64,000 nucleotides of DNA from a virus: the IMG/VR virus record IMGVR_UViG_3300037325_000137, positions 14,376 through 78,375 of that record; one strand, 5' to 3'. A program made the position numbers and the translations under genes. Shown here in pieces: positions 29,128 to 60,812 of this stretch. The notes below the pieces were generated by a model that did no database searches, had not been told where the DNA came from, and worked only from the letters and a program-made list of their open reading frames with translations. Numbering within the stretch: the first letter of the stretch is position 1; every line of letters begins with the position of its first letter.

Positions 29128-29349
29128 TTAGCACACATTAAAACTATCTAATATATATTTCGCTAATTTTAAGGCTTGCTCTTTATTTAAGTAAGTATGT
29201 GCATCTCCTTGAAAATCTCCCTCTATCTCAATCTCAAAGTCATTATCCTTGTCTACTGGGTTTATCACAAAATTATCAAGTGATAAACGTGTGCTAACAC
29301 TTGGTATAGTGCATTGCTCGGTTTCGGTTTTTTTACTATCTGTATTCAT
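29128..29349 (-). CDS. Cassette-encoded hypothetical protein
   Basis: Starts in att loop; TAA stop is the TTA of the core site. Confidence 0.6.
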   Translation of the reverse strand: MNTDSKKTETEQCTIPSVSTRLSLDNFVINPVDKDNDFEIEIEGDFQGDAHTYLNKEQALKLAKYILDSFNVC

Positions 29350-29417
29350 AATTCAAAGTTTTTGTGTAATTAATTAAGTTCGTGCTATAAGGTCGCAACG
29401 ACACCATACCATATCCG
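29128..29417. mobile_element. Solitary integron-like gene cassette
   Basis: Starts G|TTAGCACACATT; own R'' AAACGTGTGCTAAC; arms tggtatagtgcattgc / gcaacgacaccatacca; ends CCG|TTA. Confidence 0.8.
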
Positions 29418-29420
29418 TTA

Positions 29421-42337: not shown

Positions 42338-42566
42338 AAAAATCGATTATTGAATTGTGAGCCTTTAATATTTTAATTAGATTCATATAAGTGCTATTAT
42401 CTTGTGTTTCTTTTATAAATATTTCTAAGAACTCTTTGTGAGTAATAGGCTTGTAATTTATAAAGAAATCATATTTAAGACTAGGATTAGATGTGATTAT
42501 ATTTCCTATTTCTTGAATATTGTAGGATTTAAACCTGTGACCTAAATTATTTCTAATTTTATACAT
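42318..42566 (-). CDS. Hypothetical protein coupled to integrase stop
   Basis: 82-aa ORF. Confidence 0.45.
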   Translation of the reverse strand: MYKIRNNLGHRFKSYNIQEIGNIITSNPSLKYDFFINYKPITHKEFLEIFIKETQDNSTYMNLIKILKAHNSIIDFYEKQDK

Positions 42567-43375
42567 TAAATAGGCATTTGAATTTTGCTTAAATGATTTT
42601 TTGAAACGTGGGTGTAAATTTCAGTTGTCTTAGAGCTTTGATGCCCCGCAATAGATTGGATTATCCTTAAATCAGTACCTCCCTCTAGTAAGTGAGTGAA
42701 GCAACTATGCCTAAGCTGATGCATATAAGCATCTTCTTTAATATACTTTTTAATTATTTTATTACAAGATGTGGCTGAATACTGTAAAGAAGACTGACCG
42801 TTAAAAAGATATTCTTTTGGTCTATGTTTTTTAAAGTAATCCCTAAGTGTTTTTAGTAGCCCATTAGACAAAGGAACAACTCTATCTTTCTTGCCTTTAG
42901 CTTGAATTATATGAATCAATCCTCTATTTGAATCAATGTTTTCTATTTTCAGATTTATTATTTCTGAAACCCTTAATCCGCAACTATATGCTGCGGATAA
43001 AATAGCTTTATGTTTCATGTTTTTTATAGATAATATTTTTTCTGTAAGAATTTTTTTATCTATTATTTGGGGTAGCTTTTTTTCTTTTCTAGGTCTTGAA
43101 AAATCTACTTTATCGTATTTTTTATTCAGAACTTTTTTGTAAAGAAACTTGATTGAGCTTATTATTTGATTTTGTTGCGATATAGAGCTGAAATTATAAT
43201 TTTCTAAATAAGATTTAAAATCATTACTATCTAGCTTAGAAGGAGACTTTTTATTGACTCTTAAAAATTCTTCAACGTAATAACTATATATTTTTACAGT
43301 ATTTTTACTGTAGTTAAAATAGTTCAATTTTGAAATGAAATTCTGCAGAAAAGTGTGTTTAGTTTTGCTTAACAT
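42566..43375 (-). CDS. Tyrosine recombinase (integron-integrase-related, no IntI-specific insertion)
   Basis: SAM-like N-domain (YSKNTVKIY, SQQNQIISSIKFLY); catalytic set GLR, KGKKDR, HQLRHS, GH, IYTHV all intact. Confidence 0.92.
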   Translation of the reverse strand: MLSKTKHTFLQNFISKLNYFNYSKNTVKIYSYYVEEFLRVNKKSPSKLDSNDFKSYLENYNFSSISQQNQIISSIKFLYKKVLNKKYDKVDFSRPRKEKKLPQIIDKKILTEKILSIKNMKHKAILSAAYSCGLRVSEIINLKIENIDSNRGLIHIIQAKGKKDRVVPLSNGLLKTLRDYFKKHRPKEYLFNGQSSLQYSATSCNKIIKKYIKEDAYMHQLRHSCFTHLLEGGTDLRIIQSIAGHQSSKTTEIYTHVSKNHLSKIQMPI

Positions 43376-43430
43376 ATTGATTTATATTGATTTGTTAGTT
43401 ATGGTTGATATATAGTAGTTAGCAAACATT
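43374..43430 (+). other. attI-like primary recombination site
   Basis: ATATTGATTT x2 (43374-43393) then G|TTAGCAAAC core at 43418 with no partner hairpin arm; array begins here. Confidence 0.65.
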
Positions 43431-43709
43431 ATTCAAATAATCACAGTACATTTTTGCCTGTTCTTCGCTATGTATAAAGAACACTACCTCTATACCTTTG
43501 CCATCGAGTACCGCTTTACCTTGTTTTCTGCCAACTCTAAAAGGTGGTGTATATTTATTAGCATCATAACGTTTGCTAACACCAGATAAAATTAATGCCT
43601 CGTCTACTGCATTTTTAATAAGTCCTATACATTCTTCTTTTGCTAATGAAGTTCCTACCCAACTTTTTAAATTTTGTGCATGTTTATCAATTATTTGCTC
43701 TTTAGTCAT
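43419..43709 (-). CDS. Cassette 1 hypothetical protein
   Basis: Starts in att1 loop; ALILSGVSKR is encoded by the att arm; stop is the core TTA. Confidence 0.65.
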   Translation of the reverse strand: MTKEQIIDKHAQNLKSWVGTSLAKEECIGLIKNAVDEALILSGVSKRYDANKYTPPFRVGRKQGKAVLDGKGIEVVFFIHSEEQAKMYCDYLNNVC

Positions 43710-43772
43710 TGTCTATTTATTTAATTATTGTTATTATTTATCGGCACTAATCTTATCTGCGGTACGTTAGCT
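43571..43772. repeat. att site 1
   Basis: gctaacaccagataaaattaatgcc ... ggcactaatcttatctgcggtacgttagc. Confidence 0.85.
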
Positions 43773-43780
43773 ACAAGTGC

Positions 43781-44500
43781 TTAATTTAGTTGATTAAACA
43801 AAGTTGGTGCTTCAATCTCTTTTTCTTTTTTTTTCCCCACCCTTTCACTCGCAATATCAAAATAATCCTGTTGCATTTCAATTCCAATAAATCTTCTATT
43901 TAGGTTTTTACAAGCAACTCCTGTTGTACCACTACCCATAAAAGGGTCTAATACTACTTCGTTTTCATTAGTTGAGTTGTTTATATAAAATTCCATTAAT
44001 TCTATTGGTTTTTCTGTTGGGTGTACTTTACTCCCAATTATATTATTAAAAGAATGTACTGTTTTGCTTCCGCCAATGTCATTTATGTATTTAGATTTTC
44101 CTTTTCTAAAAAATATAGTGTACTCGCAATTCTTCATATAAAATTGAGAAGGTGTGCAGTTGTTTTTTTGCCAAACTAAAAAGTTTTGTATTTTAAATCC
44201 TGCTTTTTCTATCTCGTTTGCCATTTTTAGTAAATTAGAAGAGTTTACCATCACATAGTTTTGAGTTCCATCTTTTAGTATTCTAAACATTTCTGGCAAC
44301 CATTCACTAAATTTAGGAACACTCCTCATTAGTTCTCTATTTCCTTTCAATATACCTTTTGGTCTAATACTGTTTTTGCCATTACTATCACCTCCTGTTA
44401 TTATTTTATAAGGAGGGTCAGTAACTACACAATCAATACTTTCGCTTGGTAATGTTTTTAATATTTCAAGGGCATCACCCATTTTTAAATCTATATTCAT
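43781..44500 (-). CDS. Cassette 2: DNA amino-methyltransferase (N6/N4, beta class)
   Basis: VTDPPY, HPTEKP, LDPFMGSGTTG motifs. Confidence 0.93.
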   Translation of the reverse strand: MNIDLKMGDALEILKTLPSESIDCVVTDPPYKIITGGDSNGKNSIRPKGILKGNRELMRSVPKFSEWLPEMFRILKDGTQNYVMVNSSNLLKMANEIEKAGFKIQNFLVWQKNNCTPSQFYMKNCEYTIFFRKGKSKYINDIGGSKTVHSFNNIIGSKVHPTEKPIELMEFYINNSTNENEVVLDPFMGSGTTGVACKNLNRRFIGIEMQQDYFDIASERVGKKKEKEIEAPTLFNQLN

Positions 44501-44597
44501 AATGTTTTAATTTTATCAAATTAATTTGCCAACGCTCAAAAAAGAAAATAAAAAGGTTCAGTTCTATTAATTAAGTTTAGGTGTTTAAAGTCGCACC

Positions 44598-44657
44598 AGT
44601 AGGTAACACTGTATAAAAGCCATTGAAAATAACGGCTCTTATACCCATCCGTTAGCA
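44598..44657. repeat. att site 2 (short)
   Basis: taacactgtataaaagcc ... ggctcttatacccatccgtta. Confidence 0.8.
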
Positions 44658-44661
44658 ACAA

Positions 44662-44904
44662 TTAATTGCCCTGTAAGTAATTGTCTGCAATCCATTCTTT
44701 ACTTACAAACCTATTTCCTCCACCTTTTTCAAGGCTTGTTAAAAGGTCAATTAACAGTTCCCTTCGGTTGCTAACATCGTTTAACCGTAATTGCTCGGTT
44801 ACGTACTTATCTATGAAGTCTGTTAACCATTCTACCTTTTCATTTCCAGTCATATCGTTTCTTGATACAAGTTGGTTTAATTTTTCAATCTCTGTTATTT
44901 TCAT
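44662..44904 (-). CDS. Cassette 3 hypothetical protein
   Basis: Starts in att3 loop; QLRLNDVSNR is encoded by the arm. Confidence 0.6.
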   Translation of the reverse strand: MKITEIEKLNQLVSRNDMTGNEKVEWLTDFIDKYVTEQLRLNDVSNRRELLIDLLTSLEKGGGNRFVSKEWIADNYLQGN

Positions 44905-44968
44905 CTGTTCTTATTTATTAAGTTTTGTTATTAATTCACGCAACTACGGTTACACGTAGCCGTTGTAG
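44766..44968. repeat. att site 3
   Basis: aacatcgtttaaccgtaattgc ... gcaactacggttacacgtagccgtt. Confidence 0.85.
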
Positions 44969-44973
44969 TGCAT

Positions 44974-45270
44974 TTACATTACGTTTCGCTCGATACTTAT
45001 GTTTTTATCAGTAACAACTACTATAAAGCTTGTTCTTTGCACCGCCAAAGGGGCTTTTTTTTCAAGATGTTTAAGAACGTGGTTTGCACCATTATTTACT
45101 ATATCACGTCTAGTTTTTAATTGATGAAGTTTGTTTTGTACTTGCTCAATTTCGGCTTCCAATTCTTCTTTCTCTAAAGCTATATTCACTAATATATCAG
45201 CCCCTTTTATTTCCTCGCCTTGAATAAGGTCAGTAATTCCAGAGAAACTTAGGTCGTCAATTTTTTTCAT
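44974..45270 (-). CDS. Cassette 4 hypothetical coiled-coil protein
   Basis: ORF 44974-45285; likely start MKKIDD at 45270. Confidence 0.55.
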   Translation of the reverse strand: MKKIDDLSFSGITDLIQGEEIKGADILVNIALEKEELEAEIEQVQNKLHQLKTRRDIVNNGANHVLKHLEKKAPLAVQRTSFIVVVTDKNISIERNVM

Positions 45271-45281
45271 AGCAAAAAAAC

Positions 45282-45416
45282 GCACTACAACACTGTATAA
45301 AAATAATAGCCTGTTGTAGTGTCTTTTTAGTGGCTATTACTCACTTATTAATTAATTGTTTAACTTAAACTTTTCGCTTATTTATTCGGCTACTATTCTT
45401 ATACTAAACGTTGTAA
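45282..45416. repeat. att site 4
   Basis: aacactgtataaaaataatagcc ... ggctactattcttatactaaacgtt. Confidence 0.88.
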
Positions 45417-45420
45417 GTAA

Positions 45421-45654
45421 TTAAGGTTCGAGATACCTCAAAGGCACTTCTTTACTCCAAAAACCACCCTTATCAATGTTCTGTACTAACGCTCTTGGTT
45501 CGTCATAATATTCTTGTGTTTTACCATCTTGAAATATTGGATAATACACCAACATCCATCTGTCTTTTTTACCATCCATTTTATAAACGCTTTCGTTACG
45601 CTTATGATTTTTCCAAATCGGGTGGTTTAAGGCTTTTTCTAAATCTATGTTCAT
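45421..45654 (-). CDS. Cassette 5 hypothetical protein
   Basis: 77-aa ORF filling the cassette. Confidence 0.6.
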   Translation of the reverse strand: MNIDLEKALNHPIWKNHKRNESVYKMDGKKDRWMLVYYPIFQDGKTQEYYDEPRALVQNIDKGGFWSKEVPLRYLEP

Positions 45655-45671
45655 TTCTTATTTGCTTTAAC

Positions 45672-45877
45672 TACTTACAACACTATATATAATTAATATA
45701 AAAGGGGCGCAGTCCAACTATCCGTTATTCCTTTCGGGTCAAGCCTAAGCCCCCACGGAAGGAACGTTTTACAGGCTTTGGACACCTTCAATTTCACTAT
45801 CTAAAACGCTGTTGGTAAACCCACTAATTTCTGCATTTTTAACCCCTTTTAAACTAATCATATATTTTACGTTATAA
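45672..45877. repeat. att site 5
   Basis: aacactatatataattaatataaaagggg ... ccccttttaaactaatcatatattttacgtt. Confidence 0.8.
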
Positions 45878-46144
45878 ACAATACTCTTTTTGTGTATATG
45901 GTTCAGAGTAGAAGCATTTATCAGTACTATCAAATTTAATATTTCTATACCAAGTTATTTCTGTATTTGTTGTTTTTCCTGTTCTACTACTGCAATCACA
46001 ATCTTTATGACATTGGCAACTACCATTATCAATAGAAGTGTATTTTTTAGTAAATATTCTATAAGAAACACCATCTATAATTGTGATTTGCAATGCTTCC
46101 ATTTCTATATTCAATCTTTTAGGGTTTAACAATCTTTCTCGCAT
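45872..46144 (-). CDS. Cassette 6 Cys-rich protein
   Basis: CQCHKDCDC motif; likely start MRERLL (46144) or MEALQ; stop is the core TTA. Confidence 0.55.
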   Translation of the reverse strand: MRERLLNPKRLNIEMEALQITIIDGVSYRIFTKKYTSIDNGSCQCHKDCDCSSRTGKTTNTEITWYRNIKFDSTDKCFYSEPYTQKEYCL

Positions 46145-46155
46145 AACTTCCGTAC

Positions 46156-46253
46156 AGTTTATAACACAGGCTATAAATAAAAGCCCTGTCAAGGTTATTG
46201 TTGTGAATCGAACTTTGTGTTTAGGGCTTCAATTCATAGCCGAGCCGTTATCT
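46156..46253. repeat. att site 6
   Basis: aacacaggctataaataaaagccct ... agggcttcaattcatagccgagccgtt. Confidence 0.85.
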
Positions 46254-46424
46254 TTAATAATCAAACTCTTCCTCATTTAATACATCAAAGTGAATATCCT
46301 CATTTAATACATCAAAGTGAATATCCTCTATTTTGTTTTTAATAAACAGTCTTTTAATTCGATAGATAACTAAAGATAACAATGTATAAAATGCATAGCT
46401 TAATTTCGTTCTTAAATTTTTCAT
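46254..46424 (-). CDS. Cassette 7, 56-aa protein with duplicated EDIHFDVLN (not in ORF track)
   Basis: MKNLRTKLSYAFYTLLSLVIYRIKRLFIKNKIEDIHFDVLNEDIHFDVLNEEEFDY; 27-bp tandem repeat 46270-46323. Confidence 0.5.
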   Translation of the reverse strand: MKNLRTKLSYAFYTLLSLVIYRIKRLFIKNKIEDIHFDVLNEDIHFDVLNEEEFDY

Positions 46425-46511
46425 CTGTTCTGTTTTTAAAGTTTATAATTTATAATTAATTCAAAGTCTGTGGTGTTTAGGTCGCTACGCACCTTATACT
46501 AAACGTTGTGT
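46371..46511. repeat. att site 7
   Basis: aacaatgtataaaatgcatagc ... gctacgcaccttatactaaacgtt. Confidence 0.85.
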
Positions 46512-46519
46512 GTAATACT

Positions 46520-46762
46520 TTATTTAGGTTCGTTTACAGCATTACTATCTACTTTTTTCCAAGGACGTTCTATCATATTACAACCTGCTTGATACCAAGT
46601 TTGTATTTGTAATTTATTACATTTTGTACACTTTCTAAAATGAGCATATCTATTATCTTCTTTTCTACCACCGTCCCAATACTTATAAGGATGATATAAA
46701 TTAAAAAAACAAAGTAATTTTTGCAATGCTTTAGGTTTGTCTATTCTTAAAACTTTTTCCAT
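46520..46762 (-). CDS. Cassette 8 small Zn-binding-like protein
   Basis: LLCFFNLYH ... RKCTKC motif. Confidence 0.6.
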   Translation of the reverse strand: MEKVLRIDKPKALQKLLCFFNLYHPYKYWDGGRKEDNRYAHFRKCTKCNKLQIQTWYQAGCNMIERPWKKVDSNAVNEPK

Positions 46763-46793
46763 TTTAATAAAGTTTGTGGCTTAAATTCCGTAT

Positions 46794-46892
46794 TACACAC
46801 AACAATGTATATAGTTTATAAGCCAATTAATATTTGTTTTTAATTTGTAAATTTCTGATATGGCTTACAAAACCATATACTCAACGTTAGGC
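46794..46892. repeat. att site 8
   Basis: aacaatgtatatagtttataagcca ... tggcttacaaaaccatatactcaacgtt. Confidence 0.88.
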
Positions 46893-46896
46893 ACAA

Positions 46897-47202
46897 TTAA
46901 GGTTTGCGTCCTAATAACTTACTTAGCTTCATCCCCAACCACTCAGGGCAAGGTATAGCTACTACCCATCTTAAATAAGGCAATATACCTACAAAACCAA
47001 TCCCCCAATGCTCTGTTGCAACTATTGAAACTTCAAAGCTAAATGCGTCTAAAGTCCAAAATGTAAATATTAGCCATCTAAAACTAAAACTACTTGTATT
47101 GTGTTCGTCTGCTTTCCTTATTTCTATTAAGGGTATTAATGGAAATACATTTTTGTTGTACCATTTTTCTGTTCTCATTCTTCCTGATGCTGTTTGTGAC
47201 AT
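46897..47202 (-). CDS. Cassette 9 hypothetical Trp/Phe-rich protein
   Basis: 101-aa ORF filling the cassette. Confidence 0.6.
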   Translation of the reverse strand: MSQTASGRMRTEKWYNKNVFPLIPLIEIRKADEHNTSSFSFRWLIFTFWTLDAFSFEVSIVATEHWGIGFVGILPYLRWVVAIPCPEWLGMKLSKLLGRKP

Positions 47203-47209
47203 AATTAAA

Positions 47210-47306
47210 AGTGCCTAACAATAGCTAAAGTTAATAGCCTCAATAGGTCTTGTTATAATTTGATGGTTAGTATTAAAGGCTACTAACCTTAGCCTAGACG
47301 TTATGA
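47210..47306. repeat. att site 9
   Basis: aacaatagctaaagttaatagcct ... aggctactaaccttagcctagacgtt. Confidence 0.88.
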
Positions 47307-47459
47307 TGCAATTAAAATTTTAAGCATCTCGTTTAACTTCCCTACACATTGAGCATAGTATCGTTCATTATCTTCCTGTTTCATTATTTTAGCTACTTCA
47401 TAAAGGTCTGTATAAATACCAATTTTCTTTATTACAATACTTTTTAGTTCATCCATCAT
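47301..47459 (-). CDS. Cassette 10 small helical protein
   Basis: ORF 47301-47483; likely start MMDELK; stop is the core TTA. Confidence 0.5.
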   Translation of the reverse strand: MMDELKSIVIKKIGIYTDLYEVAKIMKQEDNERYYAQCVGKLNEMLKILIAS

Positions 47460-47471
47460 TAAAATTTTAAA

Positions 47472-47566
47472 AGCACATAACAATGTATAAAATTAATGCG
47501 CTATGATAATTAGTGTTAAATTTTTAAGTATGTGGTTAGCGCACTAATCTTATACTAACTGCAATG
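47472..47566. repeat. att site 10 (GTT core missing)
   Basis: aacaatgtataaaattaatgcgcta ... tagcgcactaatcttatactaact, then gcaatg. Confidence 0.75.
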
Positions 47567-47569
47567 TTG

Positions 47570-47818
47570 CTATTTAAAGTTTTGCCTAAACGGCTTGTTA
47601 CATTTTGGACAAGAAGTGCCTAAATACAAGCCTTTGATTATCGGTTCGCAACACTGTTCGCTCTGCCTTACAACAACGGGTATAGAAAATAATTCAGAAG
47701 GCATCAGTCTTTCTATCACGTCTATTGCACTCCATATTTCTCTTGATTCATAACTGTGATGTATTGAGTCAAAGTGTTCTGCTCTTTTTTCTAGTGTTTT
47801 AATAACGTCTGCTTTCAT
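47570..47818 (-). CDS. Cassette 11 protein with C-terminal CPKC zinc ribbon
   Basis: Starts in att11 loop; ELFSIPVVVRQ is encoded by the arm. Confidence 0.6.
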   Translation of the reverse strand: MKADVIKTLEKRAEHFDSIHHSYESREIWSAIDVIERLMPSELFSIPVVVRQSEQCCEPIIKGLYLGTSCPKCNKPFRQNFK

Positions 47819-47878
47819 CTTTTAAGTTTTTGCGTTTTAAATCCTCCTAAATTAAATTCCATACCCAAACCGTTAGCA
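47665..47878. repeat. att site 11
   Basis: aacaacgggtatagaaaataatt ... aattaaattccatacccaaaccgtt. Confidence 0.75.
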
Positions 47879-47998
47879 TTAATACTCAGTACCTAAGTAT
47901 TCTACTAAATAAGGGTAGTCCCAACTTTTACTGCTACTGTAATACATTTTCCAGTAACCTCTATTATTCTTTATTATTTCAGTCCATTTACTTGTCAT
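47879..47998 (-). CDS. Cassette 12, 39-aa aromatic-rich peptide (not in ORF track)
   Basis: MTSKWTEIIKNNRGYWKMYYSSSKSWDYPYLVEYLGTEY fills the cassette. Confidence 0.5.
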   Translation of the reverse strand: MTSKWTEIIKNNRGYWKMYYSSSKSWDYPYLVEYLGTEY

Positions 47999-48022
47999 AG
48001 TTTCTATTTTTTAAGTCCGTAC

Positions 48023-48078
48023 TAATGCTAACAATATGTAAAAAACATTAAAACGATGTGTTATACTAGACGTTAGCA
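48023..48078. repeat. att site 12 (minimal, ~56 bp)
   Basis: gctaacaatatgtaaaaaacat ... atgtgttatactagacgttagc. Confidence 0.7.
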
Positions 48079-48357
48079 AACATTTATGTTGTTGCTATCT
48101 ATAAAGCTTTTAGGATTTCCGCAACCTATTAAAAACTCTGCTCCGTTACCTAATTTAAAGTAACATCTATCCCAATCATTGCTTCTATCGAAAGTAAAAT
48201 TTTCACCTTTTTTTATGGTATAATAACACCCTTTCCAACTCAAATTCTCCCTTCTATTGTTAGGTATATTACCCACATCAGTGGCTTCTATGGGTGTGCT
48301 ACCATACCTACCTTTATCAATAAAAACTCTAATATCTTCTGTTGCTTGTAAATTCAT
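48073..48357 (-). CDS. Cassette 13 hypothetical protein
   Basis: ORF 48073-48378; likely start MNLQAT; ends NVC* on the core site. Confidence 0.6.
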   Translation of the reverse strand: MNLQATEDIRVFIDKGRYGSTPIEATDVGNIPNNRRENLSWKGCYYTIKKGENFTFDRSNDWDRCYFKLGNGAEFLIGCGNPKSFIDSNNINVC

Positions 48358-48366
48358 AATTAAACG

Positions 48367-48463
48367 ATTTGCTAACACAACCTATACACCATAAAGCAAT
48401 ATAGTATTGTGCTAATATTAAACATTGTGCTACGCTTTACGGTGCATAGCTTTACCGTTGGCG
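48367..48463. repeat. att site 13
   Basis: aacacaacctatacaccataaagc ... gctttacggtgcatagctttaccgtt. Confidence 0.85.
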
Positions 48464-48469
48464 GTAATA

Positions 48470-48820
48470 CTACATTAGTACCTTATCCATCATTTCATTT
48501 ATGTTCTCCGCAATTTTTTCATCATAACCTCTATTGTAAAATTCATCGCCAGTAGTCAAATGATAAGTACCTATGTTATCCAAATACTGTTTCATTTTTT
48601 CATAAGGTTCAGTATTTTCATACCCTATCAAATTAAGATAAGACCAATAACATTTAATAGAAAATTGCTCTGTGTTTGTTCCTCTATCTGTTCTTTTTTC
48701 GTTTTGTCTTTGTATCCATAAGGCTTGTTCTTTCTTGTAGTCTGTGTACTTTAAAGCCGTACTACTGCCAACAAAAAATATAGCAAATGCTTTTCGTAAT
48801 CTTTGGGTAAATTGTTTCAT
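48470..48820 (-). CDS. Cassette 14 hypothetical protein
   Basis: Starts in att14 loop; AFAIFFVGSS is encoded by the arm. Confidence 0.6.
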   Translation of the reverse strand: MKQFTQRLRKAFAIFFVGSSTALKYTDYKKEQALWIQRQNEKRTDRGTNTEQFSIKCYWSYLNLIGYENTEPYEKMKQYLDNIGTYHLTTGDEFYNRGYDEKIAENINEMMDKVLM

Positions 48821-48886
48821 ACTTCTAATTTTTAGTTCATTTAAGTTAGAGTGTTGTTGGCACTTGCCATCTTCAAACCGTTAGCC
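48763..48886. repeat. att site 14
   Basis: aacaaaaaatatagcaaatgc ... gcacttgccatcttcaaaccgtt. Confidence 0.8.
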
Positions 48887-49147
48887 ACCATTTGAAAAAC
48901 CGCACTCATCCAAGAAGCTTTGTCCAACAGGAGAACCTAACCATTGAATTAAGTTTACGCAAATATCTTCTTCTTTTTCGGACAACCACTCTTTAGGTTG
49001 CGTTTGTCTATCATTAGACCACCCATTCACAATAGCACTTAGGCTTTTTCTGGCAGAACCATCATGATTGAACATTTTAATAAATTTATCGTGAAATTCT
49101 TTTTCTTTAGGATTGTCATTAAATCTGTATTCTTTATTGCCTTTCAT
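48881..49147 (-). CDS. Cassette 15 hypothetical protein
   Basis: IQWLGSPVGQSFL motif; stop is the core TTA. Confidence 0.65.
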   Translation of the reverse strand: MKGNKEYRFNDNPKEKEFHDKFIKMFNHDGSARKSLSAIVNGWSNDRQTQPKEWLSEKEEDICVNLIQWLGSPVGQSFLDECGFSNGG

Positions 49148-49155
49148 AGTAAAAC

Positions 49156-49281
49156 GGTGGCTAACAATGTATATAGCAAATAGCCTTATTAGCCATTTTA
49201 GAAACTACTTGCTTGTTTATAATTTATTTACTTTTTACTTAATTCTGTGATAGGCTACTTGCCATATACTAAACATTGTAG
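49156..49281. repeat. att site 15 (core ATT instead of GTT)
   Basis: aacaatgtatatagcaaatagcct ... aggctacttgccatatactaaacatt. Confidence 0.85.
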
Positions 49282-49302
49282 TGCATTAAAACGTTCGATT
49301 CG

Positions 49303-49693
49303 CCACAACAACACGCTATATAAATAATGCTTGGTTTCGTGCTGTAATCAAAGTTTAGCGCTTTTAATGCCATAATTAAATATTTTTAAAAACCCATTCA
49401 CCATTTAGTTTCCAAGTTTCTTTATCATAGTAAACTTCTACTACTATATTTTGCATTTTATTATGGCAACGTAAATTTCCACAAGAGAAGTCTACTGCTT
49501 CAATACCTAATTCATCATTTACATCAATAAAATCTTGGTTTTTACTCGTTGCTATCAACCTTACTGGGTATTCTGCTTTCTTTTTTAATACTTCTTTTAA
49601 GTTCATTTTTAAAAATATTTAATTATTAGTTCTGTGTTTAATTCAAAGTTTCGTTCATTTAATGTCGCACTATTCATATAGCAACAGTTACCC
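49303..49693. repeat. att site 16 (gene inside loop)
   Basis: aacacgctatataaataatgc ... gcactattcatatagcaacagtt. Confidence 0.75.
49376..49606 (-). CDS. Hypothetical protein inside att16 loop
   Basis: 76 aa, bracketed by a perfect 21-bp inverted repeat. Confidence 0.6.
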   Translation of the reverse strand: MNLKEVLKKKAEYPVRLIATSKNQDFIDVNDELGIEAVDFSCGNLRCHNKMQNIVVEVYYDKETWKLNGEWVFKNI

Positions 49694-49753
49694 TTAATAC
49701 TAGGTTCGTGCTTTCTCGGTTGTTATTGTTTGTTCAGTCTTTATCCTTATTTA

Positions 49754-50224
49754 TTATATTAAATTGTTAGCGTGATGTGACTTAGTGTAAATACCACCAG
49801 CTCTTATGTATTCTATCGCTGTATTCATAGAACTAGTTGTGTCTGTGTCTTCGTTAACGATCATATACCCATCTTCATTAGAATGTTCAATAGAGAATTT
49901 AAAGTTTACCGATTTTTCCATGTCAATAGCTAAATTTTTTAGCTTTGTCTCAAATGTTTCTCTAATAGTTTCTAAAGCATTTATACCTCTTTCTATTCTT
50001 CTCATGTGTATGTTATGTCTTTCTTCCCAAAGTTCTTTTAGGATTTGTTGATTTTGATAATTAGCTAGATTACTTGATTCCCACTTACTGAAACCTTTAT
50101 CGTCGATGATCTTATAACTGGATCTTATGGAGACAATATTATTTCTTGACAGAGCCAGTTTCTTTTGAGTTTCTGTAAGTGCATTAAAAGCCTTTGACCT
50201 CTGTATTTCTTTTTTTGCTATCAT
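49754..50224 (-). CDS. Hypothetical early protein
   Basis: 156-aa ORF. Confidence 0.5.
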   Translation of the reverse strand: MIAKKEIQRSKAFNALTETQKKLALSRNNIVSIRSSYKIIDDKGFSKWESSNLANYQNQQILKELWEERHNIHMRRIERGINALETIRETFETKLKNLAIDMEKSVNFKFSIEHSNEDGYMIVNEDTDTTSSMNTAIEYIRAGGIYTKSHHANNLI

Positions 50225-51760: not shown

Positions 51761-51791
51761 TGTGTCAATTTTTTGCGTGAATTAGTAAAGG

Positions 51792-52528
51792 CTATTTTTG
51801 ATTGCTTTTTTTGTCGTTTTTAGTTTGCATAACTCTGTTAAAATATTGGGTGTGTTTTCCTTTTGCTAGAGCTACCATTTCTGCTAGAATCCTTTGAGGT
51901 GGGTTAGCCACTCCCATGATTTTATTTACTAGATAATAGTTTTCCGTTTCTTGCGTGTAAACTCTTCCTGTAACGCTACTTGTATAAACTATTTTATAAA
52001 CACCTTGCCTGACAAATGTTATTTTAAAATCCTCTCTTTTTAGTTTTAATGCCATGATTTTAGTTTTTTAGGTTGTAAACTACGATTTGCAGTTCCTCAT
52101 TAGATAATTCATCGATTCCAAAAATAGTTCCGTGTTCATTTTCTACTAATATTTCTTCATTTTCCTCTATCAAGGTTGCCCAATCTAAATTATCAAGTTG
52201 AAATTTATAAGTTGAATTAACGTCTGCTTTTTTGATTTGTTTTATGTTATAAAGTCTTGTACTCATGATTTTGTTTTTTATTTTGTTTATTTTTAGTTTT
52301 TTAACTGTTAATGTAAAACGCTATATCCTTTGCGTTTAATAAAGGTTTTTTAATTACTAGTTTTTCTAAACTAGGTTTATAGTGTTGGTTTTTCCGTATC
52401 TCCATAAATAAGTCTATCTCATTTGAAAATTCAGACTTTACAGTTTCTGTGAACCAATTTACAAATCTCTCTGGATCTTGGTCAATTAAATTTTTAGGTA
52501 TTGGATTAATGATAGCTTCCATAATCAT
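51792..52528 (-). CDS. Three small hypothetical early genes (51792-52055, 52060-52266, 52301-52528)
   Basis: Tightly packed ORFs with A-rich leaders. Confidence 0.5.
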
Positions 52529-52996: not shown

Positions 52997-53202
52997 TGTG
53001 TTGTTTTTTTTGAGTGAATTAATTTAGGTATTCTTTAGTGTAGAAATTTCTTAATTCAGTTAGGGTAAATTTCTTTTTCCATTGCGTTGTTTGCTCTAGG
53101 TAATATCCTTTTTGTCTTATTGCATTACCATCATTAAACCATACATTAAAATCTATTTCATTTATTATCATTGTGTCAATTTTTTGCGTGAATTGGTAAA
53201 GG

Positions 53203-53956
53203 TTATTTTTGCAGTAAAATTTTACGATTTTTAATAAGCTGTTTTATCTCTTCTATCGACTTGTTTTCGTCAATAAATAGAGAATGTATGATTTTACTTA
53301 AACGTTCCTTAGTGGGCTTAAATTCTTGGTGGTATCTAGTGATTCCGTTTTGTTTCGCTGCAATATCTATACATCTACTTAAAAACTTACTAGCTTTAGC
53401 GGTTAAGTATCTTCTATTTGAACACTTTATAAATTCCGTTTCGTTTCTCATGGTTTTAGTTTTTTAATTTCTTCTTTGTGAAAGTTTAAAAAATCTCTTC
53501 TTTCTCCTTGGTACATAGAATGTAATGAAGACTCATACTTATGCCCGAACTTTTCAAAAAATAAAGGTTTAATATAATTATTAAAATCATCGTATTCTTT
53601 TATTTGCTTTTCGCTTTCGTCGTTTAATAGTGTTGCAAAATCAATTATTTCTTGAACTGTGTTTTCTGCTTTGTATATTGGCTTCATAGTAAAAAGTGTT
53701 TTCTCTGTATTATTCATAATTATATTTTTTATATATTATTTAAAAGAAAATTCTTGAATTGTTCCGTGATATAAAATGTGTCTTGATACCATTTTCCTTG
53801 ATAATAAACACCTTGTATTTCAAATGGTTTTTTTTCTCTTGTATTACTTTTTCTTATTTCTTTAGTAAAATAATACACCCCTTCGTAATACAAACTTAAT
53901 TCATCAAATTTATTTGATTTTCTAGGTTTGTTACTGTAAACTTGTAATGATTCCAT
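53203..53956 (-). CDS. Three small hypothetical early genes (53203-53451, 53448-53717, 53729-53956)
   Basis: Tightly packed ORFs. Confidence 0.5.
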
Positions 53957-54538: not shown

Positions 54539-54799
54539 GATTTTGTTTTTTAAAATTTTGCGTGAATTATTAAATTTATCGCTTTTTAGTTATAGGAGTT
54601 AAAAAAAAAGTTTATTTCTTCCGTTGTCGCTCCTAATTTAGCAAGCTCTTCACGCTCTGCGTCTTGTTCTTTTTCTGAAACGTAAATTTTAGGAATTCCG
54701 TTTATAGGAATTGATAGGTCTATGTGGTGGTTATTGTTTTTAGTTTTCATAATCTGTATATTTTTTGCGTGAATTGGTAAAGGTTATTTTTTGCTCGAA

Positions 54800-57700
54800 T
54801 TATAGCGGTTTTAAATCATAGGGTTCTGCATCCAATCCATAGTCAAAAGTAAAACCTATGTTTTCAACTTCTTTTCTAAATTGCTTACAATCCTCATAGC
54901 TTAAACCGTTTTCAATTTTATCATTCCAGCGGTTACAAATTTTTACTAGTGCTGGCGGTTGGTCTTCGTAGTTTTCAAATAAACAGATTTTTTTCATGGC
55001 GTTTCTTGTTTAAAAAATGTTTTTGTATTTATTAAAAAAAGTTCTTTTTGCGCTGCTTAATGAATAGCCGATATATTTTTCTTTTATTAGGCTTCCATCT
55101 GAACAAAGGAACGAACAGATAATGTTTGAATTATTGACCTTATGTTGTATATTTTTAAGTTCTATTTTTTCCATGGTGTTTATATTTTATTTCGTTCTAT
55201 ATAGAAAGCTTCTTTTAATTCTTCAAACGTATTATGGCTGCTTAATATTTCTAAAATAGAACATTCCAAAATAGGACTTTTGCATAAATAGAAAGTATTT
55301 GTTTTCATGTTATAGCCGTAGGATAGGCAATTATTACAGTATCTCATAAATTGAACCTTTTTTGTGTTGTCTTTGTACGGCTCTATAAATCCGCATTGTT
55401 TTAAGGTTTTTAAATCCCATGCGTTTTCTTTTTCTTGCGTGTATGTTGTGTTTTTCATGATGTTTTATTTTAATAGTTTAAAATTTCTTTTTTTTCCTCT
55501 TCTTCGCTCCATTGGTTCAATAGGGCGTTTTTGTATTTATTAAAAAGTTCTATTGCTTTAAAAGAATTAATTTTTAAAAGCTTTTCGCCGTCAAAAAAAT
55601 ATATTGCTAAAGGTTCGTTTTCAAGGTAAAATTTTAAAGTAGTAAAATTGGAGTCTAATATATTTTTTCTCGTTGCGTAATTATCTAAAAAATGTTTTGT
55701 TTTTTCTCCTTCTTTCGGGAAAATTTCACTTTTATAAAAATTAATCATACTAGTGCCATTTCTCCTGCTTATGTGAATAAACTTTGTTTTTCCGTTTTTT
55801 AAAATGGTTCTTTTATCTATTTCTGTGAGGTCTTCACGATAGTTTACTATTTTTTTTTCTGTTAATTTAAAAAGCTGGTTGTAAATTGCGTTTTGTGTTT
55901 TCATTTTTCAATTATTTAAAGGTTTATGATTTGTTCCTTTGTGCGCTCTTGCTGCGCTCGTGGTCGTTAACCTGCAAAGGAGTTATTAAATTATTACTTT
56001 GTTTCTTGAAAGTAGAAAATTAAAGCAGATTCTTTTAATTCGTTTAAAAGTGTTCCTTTGTAAATTTCTCTTATGCTCTTATTTGTCTTCTGGTTTTCGC
56101 TTAAAAAATTAACTAACCACTTATAAAAAAGTTCGGCTCTTTTTTCTTCGGGGTATTTCGTAAATTTAGAACCGTTTAACCGCTTAAAAAATTTGTTCAT
56201 AGCATCACTGAAAACCTGTAAATTTTCCAGCGTTAAGACTGCGTTCTCTGAACCTAGGCAAGAGCTTTGAGTGGAATAAAAAAGGATTTCACGATCTTTA
56301 AATTCTTCTATATCTTGTGCGCTTATACCGTTGTACTTATCGCTTATTTTATCTGTAAATTCCATAATTATATTATTTTGAGGTTTTTTAAATTTGAGTT
56401 AACTACAAATAGTATTTTTTCGGCTCTTAGTATTTCGGCAGGGCTTAAATGGTTGGAGTTTAAAAGTTGCTGCAAAATTTGTAAATCTGTCATGGTGTTA
56501 TTTTTTTGAATTAGTGCCGTTTGCATTCTCGATATGCTTGCCAGTCTTTAAACTGGAACGGCTTTAAATGGTTTAATTATTTTTTTTAAGCCTTGCGGAC
56601 ACTTTGTTTCTAGATTTTGCTATGTCGTTAGCCCTTTTTTTATCATCGAAATACATTTCTCTTCCTGCTGCGTCTATGCATGGCTTTGCGTTTTCATCAA
56701 AAATACTTTGATCCGTGACCATGTATTTAAAAAAATCCTTTCTCCCTTGTATTGGATAAACTTTTTTAACTCCGCTTATTTCTGTTTTTTTCATAGTTTT
56801 AATTTTAATGTGTTCCTGTTGTTTTCTGTAATTGCGTTAACATTCTGTAAGGCTCAACAAAACGATAAGCAGAACAAATTGAAGCCATTTTAAGGGCGTT
56901 TTTATCTGTCATAACCTCATAAGCTCCTAGGATATAATGAACGGTTAAACAGTCCTTTTTTAGATCCTCAATTTTAGATAATTTAATATCTCTCTCTTTT
57001 TCACTTTTTACCGTGCTATTTTGCAGCTTTACAAATCGATTAAATAATTTATTTACGTTGCTGTTTAATTCTTTATTTGTCATGATGTTTTTTTTTTAAA
57101 TTGTTTCAAAATCAAATTCTCTGGTAATTTTTATTTTTCCGTCTGGGGAGTGGCTAACGATTCTAACTACCTTATAACCTTTTCTTGTATATCCTTTTAC
57201 GTGGTGTTCTCTACCTCCTATATTTTTAAAAAAAGATTTGCTTTCTACATATTTTTTGTGGTGTTCTTCTGTGATATTTGAAACCTTAACGACTCCTTTT
57301 AAATAGGTTGTTTTTGTGTTTGGGTTCTTTTTTTGTCTTGTTTCTGTTAATGTTATCATGATGTTTTATTTTGTAAGATTATTTAAACGGTTTTATTTTT
57401 TTTGCATTTGTTTTTTATTCATCGGATCAAGTCCATAAAATTTTAAAAAGGCGTTTATATGTCGGGAAGTTGTGGCACTATACCAGCCCTTAATAGTTGC
57501 TTTTTTATTTGTATGGTCATAGGTTGCTACTTCTGTATTATAACTTATTAAACGGCTTTCTTTTTCATCTATTAAAATATTCGCTTTCCCTTTAAATACT
57601 AATAATTGTAAAGATTGTGTTTTCATGATATTTAGCTTTATAAGATTGATTTAAACGGTTTTAAGGTTAACCGTAAAACTATGGTAAAAAATTAATAATG

Positions 57701-58198: not shown

Positions 58199-58354
58199 TT
58201 TTTTTGTTTTTAAAATATTAAAAGTATTGTTGCGGTTAAAAAATTAATTAATACAAATGTCGCTAATGCTCTACCTATGATTAAATAGGCTTTTTCTGTG
58301 TAGTGTAATTTTCTCATGGTTTTATTTATTTAAGTTAGTGTTCTAATGAGTTAC

Positions 58355-58362
58355 AAATATAC
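58355..58362 (-). promoter_or_regulatory. Bacteroidota sigma-70 -7 element (TAnnTTTG) heading the leftward early operon
   Basis: TATATTTG on - strand upstream of first early ORF; same motif at ~7297, 18866, 24393, 24504, 25719, 28580, 34031, 41716, 63289. Confidence 0.65.
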
Positions 58363-59022
58363 AACTACATGAAGGAAAATCAATATCTTTCATTGCTTTA
58401 AGGCCAAACTTTAACAGTATAATCGACGAACTACACAATTAACCACTTTATACTAAATATAAACTTCTTTAACCATCCAGCACAAGATGATCCAAAACAT
58501 ACAAAAAAACTTTAACTTTGCTAATATTATTAGTATGTAACATATATTACTATTTATATTAGTACACTATAAAAATAGCTTTTTAAATTACTGCTTTATA
58601 TTATTGGTTTTTATGATGGGTTTTTAACATAAGCAAGCCTATAAGAACCAACAAGTTAAGACGTTTTATATAAATTATTGGTTCAAGTCTTCACATTATT
58701 ATATATAGGACTTAATTAATTAGTTGGATTGGTTCACTGCTTGGCCCATAACATACAAGACAGGCGCAATAGCACTAATGCCTTGCCGATATGCTTAAGG
58801 TATTAGTATAATCACCCGAAAGAAAACCGTACACGCTAAGTATGAGGACTTCAAAACACTAGATCATAGTAGTAGGTGATCAATTTAAGTTAATCCATAC
58901 GCACCGTATAAAAACGCTAAAACTTTTGAAACATAAACCATTTATCAATAGGGGTAGGGTCTTGACGAAACGAAAACCCATCATGAAAAACTTCGCCAAC
59001 TACTACTACTAACCATCAGTAT

Positions 59023-59191
59023 ATAACTAAGTGTAAAATCTGAATAACTAAGTGTGTGAGATATAATCGTAAGTAGATTATTAAACCTTTGTAAGCCACT
59101 AACTGTTGTTTGTTACTAAGTAAAGAAAGAGAGTAGCAACGGTTTTACTGGGCTGGGGGTGTGTTGTTATGGTGCAATAAGCTAACTAAGT
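59023..59191 (+). repeat. ACTAAGT-core direct repeats in non-coding divergence zone
   Basis: ataactaagtgt at 59023 and 59044; actaagt at 59115 and 59185. Confidence 0.55.
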
Positions 59192-59306
59192 AAGTGGTTA
59201 TAAGGTTGTTAACGCCATTCCTTATTAAGGGTAAAGTTTTAGTGATAAATTAGTATTAACCTTAATAATTAGGCTATATTTGTAAAAACTTTACCTTATA
59301 TAAGGA

Positions 59307-59854: not shown

Positions 59855-60061
59855 ATGAAAGTTGAATTAGATAGAAAAGGATTAGAAACATTAGTAAAAG
59901 GTAGCCAACCTTATTACAATGATTTTGAAAACGAGTTAGTAAAAAAAGCTGGACACTCTTATAATGATCAATATGGTAGGACTAGTTGGCACAACTTAAG
60001 TGACCTTACAGAAAAAGAACTCTATAATTTATATGAAATATGTAGGAATAGTTGGACTTAA
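59855..60061 (+). CDS. Hypothetical protein, probably cassette-derived
   Basis: Followed immediately by GCCTAAC core and an att arm. Confidence 0.55.
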   Translation: MKVELDRKGLETLVKGSQPYYNDFENELVKKAGHSYNDQYGRTSWHNLSDLTEKELYNLYEICRNSWT

Positions 60062-60148
60062 ATGTTGCCTAACGTCAAGGCTAAAGTTAGTAGCCGTTAA
60101 TTACTAACCATCAAACTATAACTAGACCTATTTGGGCATTTTAAAATT

Positions 60149-60313: not shown

Positions 60314-60374
60314 ATGGCTTACAACGTACCGCAGATAAGATTAGTTGCGTGAATAATAACTTAAATTAATAGAA

Positions 60375-60527
60375 ATGAAAAACAGAATAATTGAAATATG
60401 TGAGTTAGGAAAACCACAAAGTATAATTCATAGAGAAAATGAACCGATTACAGAACTAATCAAAACCACTGACTTAGTAGAAGAACTTAACAAGCAATTA
60501 ATTTTATCTGGTGTTGTAGCCAGTTAA
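60375..60527 (+). CDS. 50-aa protein encoded in att loop and arm (not in ORF track)
   Basis: MKNRIIEICELGKPQ...NKQLILSGVVAS. Confidence 0.5.
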   Translation: MKNRIIEICELGKPQSIIHRENEPITELIKTTDLVEELNKQLILSGVVAS

Positions 60528-60762: not shown

Positions 60763-60812
60763 ACCTTAATTGGCTACAACATCGGATAAACTCAATAAAA
60801 AATATAAATAAA

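Follow-up and report, generated by a model that had tools for sequence, protein, structure and literature searches.

The DNA analyzed here (the window, 64,000 nucleotides) is part of a 78-kb crAss-like phage genome and contains a gene for a tyrosine recombinase with an adjoining array of gene cassettes. The features under discussion are as follows, with bit scores taken from the covariance model described further on.

29128..29349, minus strand: ORF of the 29-kb cassette, 73 aa; leader end …QCTIPSV, arm peptide QCTIPSVSTR
29296..29419, minus strand: solitary 29-kb site, ~122-nt class; ATG 29349 in the loop; 75.2 bits, but in the training set
42566..43375, minus strand: Xer/IntI-like tyrosine recombinase, 269 aa, at the integrase-proximal end of the array
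43371..43420, minus strand: S0, a weakly palindromic attI-like site, from sequence reading
43376..49700 (about 43.36-49.7 kb), minus strand: array of about 16 cassettes, adjoining the recombinase gene
43419..43709, minus strand: cassette-1 ORF, 96 aa; ATG 43709; arm peptide ALILSGVSKR
43578..43768, minus strand: S1, ~193-nt class; L arms pair across a 140-nt loop; 25.7 bits, E 0.005, not in the training set
44662..44904, minus strand: cassette-3 ORF, 80 aa; ATG 44904; leader end …QLRLNDV, arm peptide QLRLNDVSNR
44773..44964, minus strand: S3, ~193-nt class; ATG 44904 in the loop; arm pairing
46254..46424, minus strand: cassette-7 ORF, 56 aa; arm in the +2 frame (…YAFYTLL), arm peptide YAFYTLLSL
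46378..46507, minus strand: S7, ~122-nt class; ATG 46424 in the loop; in training alignment A1
47570..47818, minus strand: cassette-11 ORF, 82 aa; leader end …LFSIPVV, arm peptide LFSIPVVVRQ
47675..47874, minus strand: S11, ~193-nt class; ATG 47818 in the loop; 32.4 bits, not in the training set; inverted repeat I12
48470..48820, minus strand: cassette-14 ORF, 116 aa; 17-aa leader end …AFAIFFV, arm peptide AFAIFFVGSS
48770..48882, minus strand: S14, ~122-nt class; ATG 48820 in the loop; in alignment A1
60323..60515, plus strand: 60-kb site, ~193-nt class, matching plus-strand genes; 29.0 bits
60375..60527, plus strand: 60-kb ORF, 50 aa; ATG 60375 in the loop; arm peptide QLILSGVVAS

The recombinase has Pfam matches to Phage_integrase and Phage_int_SAM_4 and is the sole PF00589 match in the 78-kb genome. 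Its best NCBIfam matches, both under cut-off, are XerA_Arch (180.5 bits) and the integron integrase family TIGR02249 (157.7 bits vs. a cut-off of 265, in two stretches, with residues 9-197 corresponding to profile positions 1-191); PRK15417 reaches 103 bits vs. a cut-off of 435, and profile comparison finds the IntI-specific extra segment between patch III and box II to be absent. The GTT core of S0 overlaps the integrase start codon (ATGTT), and the first cassette joins S0 at the AAC core. Inverted repeats of 10-13 nt bracket each cassette body, as would be expected from a circular intermediate. We consider the platform to be, with good probability, an integron-like gene-cassette array with attC-like folded sites, in which the activity of the recombinase is inferred.

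The sequence-only reading had proposed that seven ORFs begin inside the loop of a recombination site and read through its arm, and all seven are present on the strand given for them, with each of the seven quoted arm peptides correct. At S1, for instance, the ATG lies in the loop and the translated arm and R box occupy 43568-43601, such that the cassette-1 product consists of a 44-aa site-encoded leader (…ALILSGV) and a 52-aa body (SKRYDANKYTPPF…). Two of the seven sites lie outside of the array: the 29-kb site, 14 kb away from it, and the 60-kb site, whose model match on the minus strand is the usual orientation relative to genes. The latter is a paralogue of S1: the arms of the two are nearly the same, the flanks differ on both sides. 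Its ORF stops four codons past the GTT core, leaving a leader with almost no body. At S2, S4, S5, S6, S8, S9, S10, S12, S13, and S15 there is no arm-traversing loop ORF, and the ORFs begin 3' of the site.

The covariance model contains 20 base pairs and was trained only on 12 shorter sites (alignment A1). Beyond the window it yields 317 more matches in 76 viral contigs with relatives of the 269-aa recombinase, with the AAC core conserved in 305 and the GTT core in 316. All 317 share one orientation relative to the recombinase gene across the 76 loci, and where position was compared (57 loci) 296 sites lie upstream of this gene and 17 downstream. Site lengths fall into four discrete classes of ~46, ~86, ~122, and ~193 nt. 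The long-loop sites genuinely belong to the family, as the model recovers S5 (42.7 bits), S11 (32.4), the 60-kb site (29.0), and S1 (25.7) from outside its training set; S3 is recovered only in part and was accepted on a 10/11-nt L-arm pairing judged by eye.

Read on the coding strand, each site runs 5'-AAC, arm, loop, arm, GTT-3'. Across the three longer classes, the arms of this strand fold better than those of the opposite strand in 258/270 sites, with a difference of about 2.5 kcal/mol, and the coding strand is thus the equivalent of the integron “bottom” strand, which in classical attC sites has a stability advantage of about 2.1 kcal/mol, is enriched in G:T mispairs, and is cleaved in 5'-AAC-3' (PMC5027507). 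In the inspected sites, A.C mismatches recur on one strand, where the other has G.T, and the spacers differ in length (3 vs. 5 nt); no conserved bulged bases, such as the extrahelical bases that direct strand choice in integrons, were noticed in them, in an inspection that was not systematic.

The mobile unit is the site together with its downstream ORF, cut at the coding-strand 5'-AAC. Among 412 whole-site HSPs, only 4 reach at least 40 nt upstream of AAC while 74 reach at least 40 nt downstream of GTT, and the HSPs that enter the downstream gene start at AAC in 36 cases, near GTT in 23, and further upstream in one. The block boundary at the AAC core is sharp (1-3 nt), and the near-GTT breakpoints are scattered from -1 to -21. 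A 351-bp cassette (43418-43768) is 100% identical from AAC core to AAC core in another locus (L086) with different flanks and array context, and pieces of contigs from four further metagenomes have their breaks at the cores. The evidence for core-to-core units is limited to these cases, and no complete cassette common to at least 2 of the 76 loci at 80% identity or more was found.

These boundaries bear on whether the cassettes could instead have canonical integron polarity, with each ORF followed by its own attC. In that case the loop-encoded N-terminus would be part of the upstream cassette, and proteins would be broken or re-fused with each excision or insertion. Most ORF stop codons do fall within the xxTAAC box, a feature of classical cassettes, the cassette-1 body homologues change their N-terminus exactly at the GTT core, and the 23 HSPs beginning near GTT fit such an arrangement as well. 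The polarity is nevertheless disfavored by the core-to-core identity of site plus downstream ORF in L086, by the near absence of homology upstream of AAC, by the attI-like site and recombinase, which lie where the opposite polarity would place them, and by the folding strand, which places 5'-AAC at the untranslated arm (by the criterion of PMC5027507). Nor do the 76 loci have in common any GTT-to-GTT cassette of at least 80% identity, and we consider canonical polarity extremely unlikely. At the same time, near-GTT breakpoints are almost as common as those at AAC, and a single-crossover integron model is incomplete.

To quantify the dual use of the sites, loop-start ORFs were counted in the 76 related loci as those with a start in the loop and at least 20 codons beyond the GTT core, with the opposite strand and shuffled site interiors as controls. 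In the ~122-nt class they occur on the coding strand in 89/151 sites (10/151 on the opposite strand; shuffled expectation 28.9), and in the ~193-nt class in 9/10 (0/10; 3.3), such that loop-start ORFs in the long site classes are more frequent than chance. The corresponding values are 16/63 (9/63; 5.6) for the ~46-nt class and 12/109 (7/109; 9.9) for the ~86-nt class. A shared frame with GTT as a Val codon is found in 6/7 ORFs of the window and 64/94 of the wider set, which is partly forced since TAG closes one of three frames in sites with GTTAGC.

The arm peptides had been noted to share an L.I..V motif, attributed to constraint on the DNA, and this attribution is borne out: the peptide is the translation of conserved arm DNA, the consensus of which is identical in translated and untranslated arms. 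The pattern L.[ILVKF]..V has the core Val as its last residue in 44/64 in-frame leaders, compared to 0.0014 per position in the window's other ORFs. The further idea that the motif could serve as a stand-alone protein-level marker does not hold, as it is too degenerate.

That the loop starts are used is inferred, with no expression data at hand (no RNA run containing this DNA, no Ribo-seq, no proteomics), and the loop-start ORFs could in principle be artefacts of ORF calling, with true starts past the arm and the arm and loop never translated. An ATG directly follows the core in 13/94 bodies and a Met occurs within 15 residues in 31/94, so some could start downstream. One body, that of cassette 1, is known in leaderless form (P0021 and P0043, 52-53 aa), from which it follows that the leader is dispensable for this body. 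The short leaders are of low complexity (rich in N, E, and K) and only weakly constrained (pooled pN/pS 0.55). Set against these points, open frames through the arm are 3-fold over shuffled and 9-fold over the opposite strand, roughly half of the bodies (49/94) lack an in-frame Met in the 30 residues next to the core, and the loop ATGs have the A-rich ...ATGAAA context that these arrays show at ordinary starts. In the 44-aa leader, 26 positions are invariant among 17 proteins, and the loop-coded codons of this leader, compared between the window and L087, give a pN of 0.08, well under the pS of 0.33 (a single pair with about 14 substitutions). Independent gene callers also predicted the fused forms in 84 database proteins. 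An artefact therefore seems highly unlikely, and the proposal that loops supply starts and N-terminal modules gains support from the start context, the Met-less bodies, and the common leaders found on unrelated bodies. It is likely, in our judgment, that the same DNA is both a recombination structure and an expression module providing start codon and leader.

The separate search of N- and C-terminal halves suggested by the sequence-only reading does find a switch of homology at the arm peptide. For the 84 homologues of the cassette-1 ORF, the C-terminal module has a median identity of 84% and the N-terminal part only 21.5%, with the switch point at Val44; this body is found downstream of at least 20 unrelated leaders, and its leader (85-95% identical) on at least 16 unrelated bodies. 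The 10 homologues of the cassette-14 ORF comprise 7 that are colinear and 3 with other leaders that switch at the same Val. Homologues that were always co-linear across the motif would have refuted the idea, and both families show that this is not the case. The second refuting condition, true starts past the arm, is likewise judged not to apply, on sequence evidence alone.

Re-assortment extends over the wider set, where 28 ORF pairs have site-encoded leaders at least 60% identical but unrelated bodies. The cassette-3 body resembles that of P0069, which has the cassette-1 leader; the cassette-7 leader (MKNLRTKLSY…) also precedes a lipoprotein-like body in L047; and P0007 joins the cassette-1 body to a leader like that of the 29-kb cassette (…KQCTIPSV). 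Between L087 and cassette 1 the site interior and the 13-nt R boxes are identical and the body is different. The expectation that crossover at R'' would make chimeric proteins thus stands with respect to the outcome, as leaders and bodies do switch at the arm, but the process is unidentified. Routine cassette movement does not form chimeras, since the normal crossover is at the other core (AAC), in the untranslated arm, and excision or insertion there keeps leader and body together.

Site interiors are present in high copy and are 89-98% identical between distant phages, offering homology for exchange, and it is conceivable that the sites are regulatory stem-loops of DNA or mRNA (a promoter/terminator or processing element, similar to the promoter-early stem-loops, PeSLs, of T4-type phages), with modules shuffled by homologous recombination in the arms during co-infection. 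The recombinase would then have another job, and the loop ORFs would follow from a start codon in an accessible loop. The G:T (G:U) asymmetry on the transcribed strand, the 29-kb and 60-kb sites that follow local gene direction outside of the array, the loop motif that also precedes ordinary starts, and the scatter of the near-GTT breakpoints are all in keeping with such elements, for which two reports on PeSL-flanked ORF shuffling give a precedent (PMC2839356, PMC4122927). They do not account as readily for arrays that adjoin an Xer/IntI-like recombinase in fixed orientation in 76 loci, for the inverted repeats expected of a circular intermediate, for a block boundary within 1-3 nt of AAC, or for an attI-like half-site abutting the recombinase gene. 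We regard this explanation as unlikely.

The reading we prefer, and believe to be probably correct as a whole, is that of dual-use sites moving with their downstream ORFs. The repeats would be folded, attC-like recombination sites belonging to an integron-like cassette platform carried by phages, in which each cassette is cut at the coding-strand 5'-AAC and a gene follows its site, instead of preceding it as in classical integrons. In the ~122- and ~193-nt site classes, the loop carries an A-rich initiation region, an ATG, and the first 15-45 codons, after which the 3' arm and R box would be translated as …L.I..V|S.S…, so that the site interior would give a start-less ORF body its start codon and N-terminal leader. 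Over evolution, interiors and bodies have changed partners many times at the GTT core or beside it, giving natural chimeras; the process behind this is inferred, as is cassette excision and insertion by the recombinase, for which an identical cassette in two contexts is only indirect evidence.

What results is that unrelated small proteins share site-encoded N-terminal leaders, swapped between bodies exactly at the site core. A more tentative possibility, which we put forward with considerable doubt, is that site interiors are portable “start-and-tag” modules fusing promoter-less, start-less fragments in frame to a few leaders, some of them functional addresses or adaptors. If this were true, the repertoire would include ~44-aa helical leaders under purifying selection, short hydrophilic leaders, and +2-frame signal-peptide-like leaders, with roles such as oligomerisation, secretion, or virion packaging, and exchange at the translated core would be a natural recombinase-guided shuffling of N-terminal address vs. 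C-terminal effector.

Like integrons, the platform has imperfectly palindromic sites that contain R and L boxes and keep AAC/GTT at their cores. As in integrons, too, the array adjoins a tyrosine recombinase related to Xer, an attI-like site is present, and the cassette boundary falls in 5'-AAC-3' on the strand that is more stable and richer in G:T. Site families common to unrelated ORFs are a further shared feature, as are ORFs that overlap the site. It differs in its recombinase (269 aa and without the IntI-specific segment), in having the ORF on the bottom, better-folding strand with the site upstream of it, whereas integrons have a top-strand ORF followed by attC, in a loop that contains a start codon and a leader of 15-45 codons, in the four discrete site lengths, in its carriage by crAss-like phages and other viral contigs, and in a second class of breakpoints at the other core.

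In class 1 integrons, translation starting outside the cassette is known, along with fused cassettes such as blaGES-1/aacA4 that arise from attC loss or truncation (PMC8876359). As in those fusions, a cassette ORF in the phage can depend on initiation signals from neighboring sequence; those cases, however, are sporadic, whereas more than half of the long phage sites are intact and include start and leader as a regular, conserved component.

The PeSL cassettes of T4-type phages, for which shuffling of the flanked ORFs is documented in the reports cited above, resemble the present system in that small accessory ORFs sit in a phage hyperplastic region and conserved stem-loops mark the points of exchange. 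The PeSL type is marked by a composite stem-loop, promoter and terminator in one, that flanks ORFs without a dedicated recombinase. Stem-loops flank the ORFs of our phages, where any promoter role would be conjecture, and a recombinase gene is adjacent in 76 loci. To our knowledge, PeSLs have no dedicated recombinase, no AAC/GTT cores, and no inverted repeats around bodies, and they are untranslated.

In shufflons (Rci acting with sfx sites in pilV), inversion takes place between oppositely oriented sites within one gene. Similar to the phage platform, they have tyrosine-recombinase sites inside a coding region, and the part of the protein beyond the site changes; the phage sites differ in that all are in direct orientation (317/317) and each cassette is a separate gene.

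On the coding (minus) strand, each site of the array at 43.36–49.7 kb, where imperfect palindromes alternate with small minus-strand ORFs, reads 5'-AAC, short spacer, arm, loop, arm, short spacer, GTT-3'. The sequence-only reading had seven ORFs (cassettes 1, 3, 7, 11 and 14 at the sites with those numbers, the 29-kb cassette at 29128–29349 and the ORF at 60375–60527) beginning within the loop and continuing through the 3' arm of the coding strand. This holds for all seven, as do the arm peptides quoted for them. The GTT core is a valine codon in six of the seven, the frame of cassette 7 being shifted by two bases. A Pfam scan of these ORFs and their neighbors gave no family for the six loop-start ORFs it covered (that at 60375 was left out).

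The source record is 78,375 bp long with direct terminal repeats (the window being its bases 14376–78375), and a crassvirus muzzle protein is encoded in the window. The minus strand carries nearly all genes up to ~58 kb. Abutting the array is the sole tyrosine recombinase gene of the genome:

42566–43375: tyrosine recombinase gene, 269 aa, with Phage_integrase and Phage_int_SAM_4 domains

The top-scoring models for this protein are XerA and the integron-integrase, yet both stay under every cut-off, and the integron-integrase model aligns in two stretches. At least 209 relatives with 55–67% identity are found in IMG/VR contigs. At the attI-like site S0, the GTT core and the integrase start codon share bases (ATGTT, 43371–43375), and 6 of 57 relatives have the same ATGTT start.

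We curated 17 sites in the window and trained a covariance model on 12 short ones. The model recovered the untrained long-loop sites S5, S11 and S1, the 60-kb site and a second 60-kb match (60061–60152), in every case on the strand of the local gene direction. Applied to 76 loci with related recombinases, it found 317 sites, all in one orientation relative to the recombinase gene; in the 57 loci where the recombinase ORF was located, 296 lie upstream of its start and 17 downstream. The model was used because a generic AAC…GTT duplex scan of the genome was too noisy (114 candidates against ~69 in shuffles); single-arm nhmmer profiles were too insensitive. An Rfam scan of the array returned no credible match. 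Owing to its long AT-rich loop, the folding z-scores of the whole S1 site (−1.19 and −0.38) are not significant; its closing stem is present in the minimum-energy fold of both strands.

Site length from AAC to GTT is multimodal (43371–49277 of the window and loci L002–L081), with classes near 46, 86, 122 and 193 nt. For each class we tallied the ORFs with a start in the loop and 20 or more further codons beyond the core, taking the opposite strand and shuffled interiors as controls.

Sites with a loop-start ORF, by length class
~46 nt: coding strand 16/63; opposite strand 9/63; shuffled expectation 5.6
~86 nt: coding strand 12/109; opposite strand 7/109; shuffled expectation 9.9
~122 nt: coding strand 89/151; opposite strand 10/151; shuffled expectation 28.9
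~193 nt: coding strand 9/10; opposite strand 0/10; shuffled expectation 3.3

The ATG in the loop has the same A-rich context (…ATGAAA) as ORF starts that follow short sites, and in 49 of 94 read-through ORFs the body, i.e., the part after the GTT core, has no in-frame Met within 30 residues. Both features support real starts in the loop, in line with the proposal that loops supply them, in the absence of expression data.

Several sites deserve separate mention. In the shortest class, site interiors are 98% identical even where the recombinases of the phages compared share only ~60% identity. S5 (45679–45873) is a ~193-nt site with a GC-richer loop of 135 nt, in which the only ORF has 11 codons; Rfam gives no match for it, and it may represent a decayed leader or else a small structured RNA. 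The plus-strand early region has two or three further sites or half-sites (60061–60152, 60775–60783), one of them being GGCTACAAC after the ORF at 60541–60762, which pairs with GTTGTAGCC at 60513, and this looks like a small second array distant from the recombinase.

The palindrome alone does not tell whether a site travels with the preceding or the following gene. To resolve this we compared loci using 412 BLAST HSPs between different loci, each covering a whole site. Of the 412, 4 run 40 nt or more past the AAC core on its upstream side and 74 run 40 nt or more past the GTT core on its downstream side, with the upstream edge mostly within 1–3 nt of AAC. Where an HSP takes in 60 nt or more of the downstream gene, its start is at AAC in 36 cases, at or near GTT in 23 and further upstream in 1. 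The metagenome contig L086 carries 43768–43418 of the window at 100% identity, exactly 351 bp from AAC core to AAC core, with different flanks on both sides (an upstream body ending ATTACACACAAC, and downstream another site that is not the attI-like S0). In the three longer classes, coding-strand arms fold better than their complement at 258 of 270 sites, the difference being ~2.5 kcal/mol; in classical integrons the bottom strand, which is the one recombined, is ~2.1 kcal/mol more stable, has an excess of G:T mispairs and is cut within its 5'-AAC-3' (PMC5027507). Finally, the weakly palindromic S0 at the recombinase-proximal end occupies the attI place expected for a site-before-ORF polarity. 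From the HSP blocks, the identical L086 cassette, the strand asymmetry and the position of S0 we conclude that the cassette is a site plus the ORF downstream of it, with the ORF on the bottom strand, so that a loop-start ORF lies entirely in one cassette.

In four other salt-lake metagenomes, too, contig pieces break at cores (e.g., 44962–45324, 45869–46241 and 43578–43776), with loose ends at 47304 and 48450. In the same metagenomes (window 43300–49800), contig coverage is deepest over site interiors and falls almost to zero over most gene bodies, which indicates that sites are far more widespread than any single cassette. No complete cassette shared between any of the 76 loci was found at ≥80% identity, whether delimited AAC to AAC, GTT to GTT or GTT to AAC. 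Insertion of a MITE-like element into a palindromic AACGTT target was considered and set aside, since the 10–13-nt inverted repeats (cores included; e.g., GTTAGCAAACGTT … AATGTTTGCTAAC) bracket each gene body rather than the sites.

The N- and C-terminal halves of the cassette-1 homologs (84 proteins, mostly 92–104 aa) behave very differently: median aligned identity to the query is 84% after Val44 and 21.5% before the arm, so homology does switch at the arm. The cassette-1 body (SKRYDANKYTPPF…) stands behind at least 20 unrelated leaders (site-encoded N-terminal parts) of ~40 aa, nearly all ending (K/E)QL.(L/I)..V, as well as behind a 22-aa leader of the 29-kb-cassette type (homolog P0007); in P0021 and P0043 it has no leader at all. 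The cassette-1 leader in turn (85–95% identity, 26 invariant positions in 17 proteins) precedes at least 16 unrelated bodies, one of which resembles the cassette-3 body (P0069). The switch is also visible in DNA, where identity of loci L082–L085 to the window starts at the GTT core, and the metagenome contig L087 retains the site interior at 87% identity, together with both of the 13-nt R boxes, but has a different body. Among cassette-14 homologs, 7 of 10 are colinear through the leader and 3 have other leaders, switching at the same Val. Across the 76 loci, 28 ORF pairs combine leaders at least 60% identical with unrelated bodies (the leader M..NKNTE.DNTDKKLHISDV occurs on six different bodies), and only two pairs have common bodies. 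A related-locus search with the cassette-14 ORF gave no relatives; with the leader alignment, no locus was confirmed in viral contigs, and a metagenome scan yielded only L086 and L087.

Three positions of the arm peptide are strongly conserved in 64 in-frame leaders, with Leu at position −5 in 48, Ile or Leu at −3 in 50 and Ser or Arg at +3 in 59. The same DNA consensus (…ATT…TATA…T-GTTA…AGT) is found in translated arms and in the untranslated arms of the ~86-nt class, so the peptide motif is a translation of L-box and R-box DNA, which bears out the suggestion that L.I..V reflects DNA constraint. Translated in the +2 frame, the arm gives …YTLL|LAV…; several ORFs of this kind resemble signal peptides or lipoproteins. 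Considering only loop-coded codons, the cassette-1 leader compared between the window and L087 gives a pS of 0.33 and a pN of 0.08, and the pooled short leaders a pN/pS of 0.55, both from small numbers. The AlphaFold2 model of the cassette-1 protein is only moderate (mean pLDDT 67, pTM 0.29), with the 44-aa leader as one long helix (residues 3–39, pLDDT ~75–81), a low-confidence junction and a body of a small β-hairpin plus helix.

Judged from sequence, without expression or activity data, the phage system works like an integron, and its long sites would be recombination structures doubling as start-and-leader modules. Crossover at the untranslated 5' arm would leave each ORF intact during cassette movement. 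Of the prediction that att exchange or aberrant crossover at R'' would make chimeric proteins, the outcome is borne out by the homology switches; normal crossover, though, is placed at the untranslated arm. The many re-pairings of leader and body would need a second process at or near the translated core, for which there are three candidates. The other strand, whose 5'-AAC is complementary to this GTT, may occasionally recombine; the conserved arm may undergo homologous exchange, given site interiors that are 80–98% identical between distant loci and high-copy in metagenomes; or an unknown cassette-creating process may be responsible. These three remain inseparable on present evidence.

The Pfam-recognizable cassette proteins are DNA methyltransferases (N6_N4_Mtase, MethyltransfD12; window 43781–44500, L020:7917–8765 and L027:7057–7863), which fits accessory or anti-restriction cargo. 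Elsewhere in the window, a perfect 21-nt inverted repeat without AAC/GTT cores (49372–49392 and 49606–49626) exactly brackets the ORF at 49376–49606 at the distal array end. A 62-nt direct repeat occurs in three copies among small minus-strand ORFs (51763–51824, 53174–53235 and 54755–54816) and may represent promoters. ORFs of ≥50 aa are absent from the ~1.1 kb at 58200–59300, which separates the minus-strand from the plus-strand transcription units and might serve as a regulatory region or an origin. Following the solitary 29-kb cassette, the minus-strand gene at 29420–29636 has a stop after ~19 codons with an open frame beyond, and may be a broken cassette gene.

In the literature searched, we found no description of attC-like sites regularly holding a start codon and N-terminal leader, nor of such arrays in crAss-like phages; a 2023 survey of phage integrons (PMC9892861) leaves crAss, Flavobacteria and Bacteroidetes unmentioned. 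The dozens of natural cases described here, in which one site-encoded leader is joined to unrelated proteins, make cassette genesis and the re-pairing of sites and ORFs directly testable. Site-encoded leaders also mean that these small phage proteins will be wrongly split or clustered by gene callers and homology searches wherever the leader is not recognized as site-derived. How attC sites become joined to genes is, to our knowledge, unresolved. Compared with integrons, the phage system meets the tests of site structure, array position and cassette boundary, and fails those of an IntI-type integrase and of ORF/attC polarity. Classical integron cassettes are mostly promoterless, with attC behind the gene, whereas here the site precedes the gene and is inferred to supply both its translation start and its N-terminal leader. 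A large family of elements in viral contigs (at least 209 recombinase loci in IMG/VR, with the 317 sites modeled in 76) has this reverse layout, which means that a reading frame can be accommodated in, and can shape, a folded-DNA recombination site.
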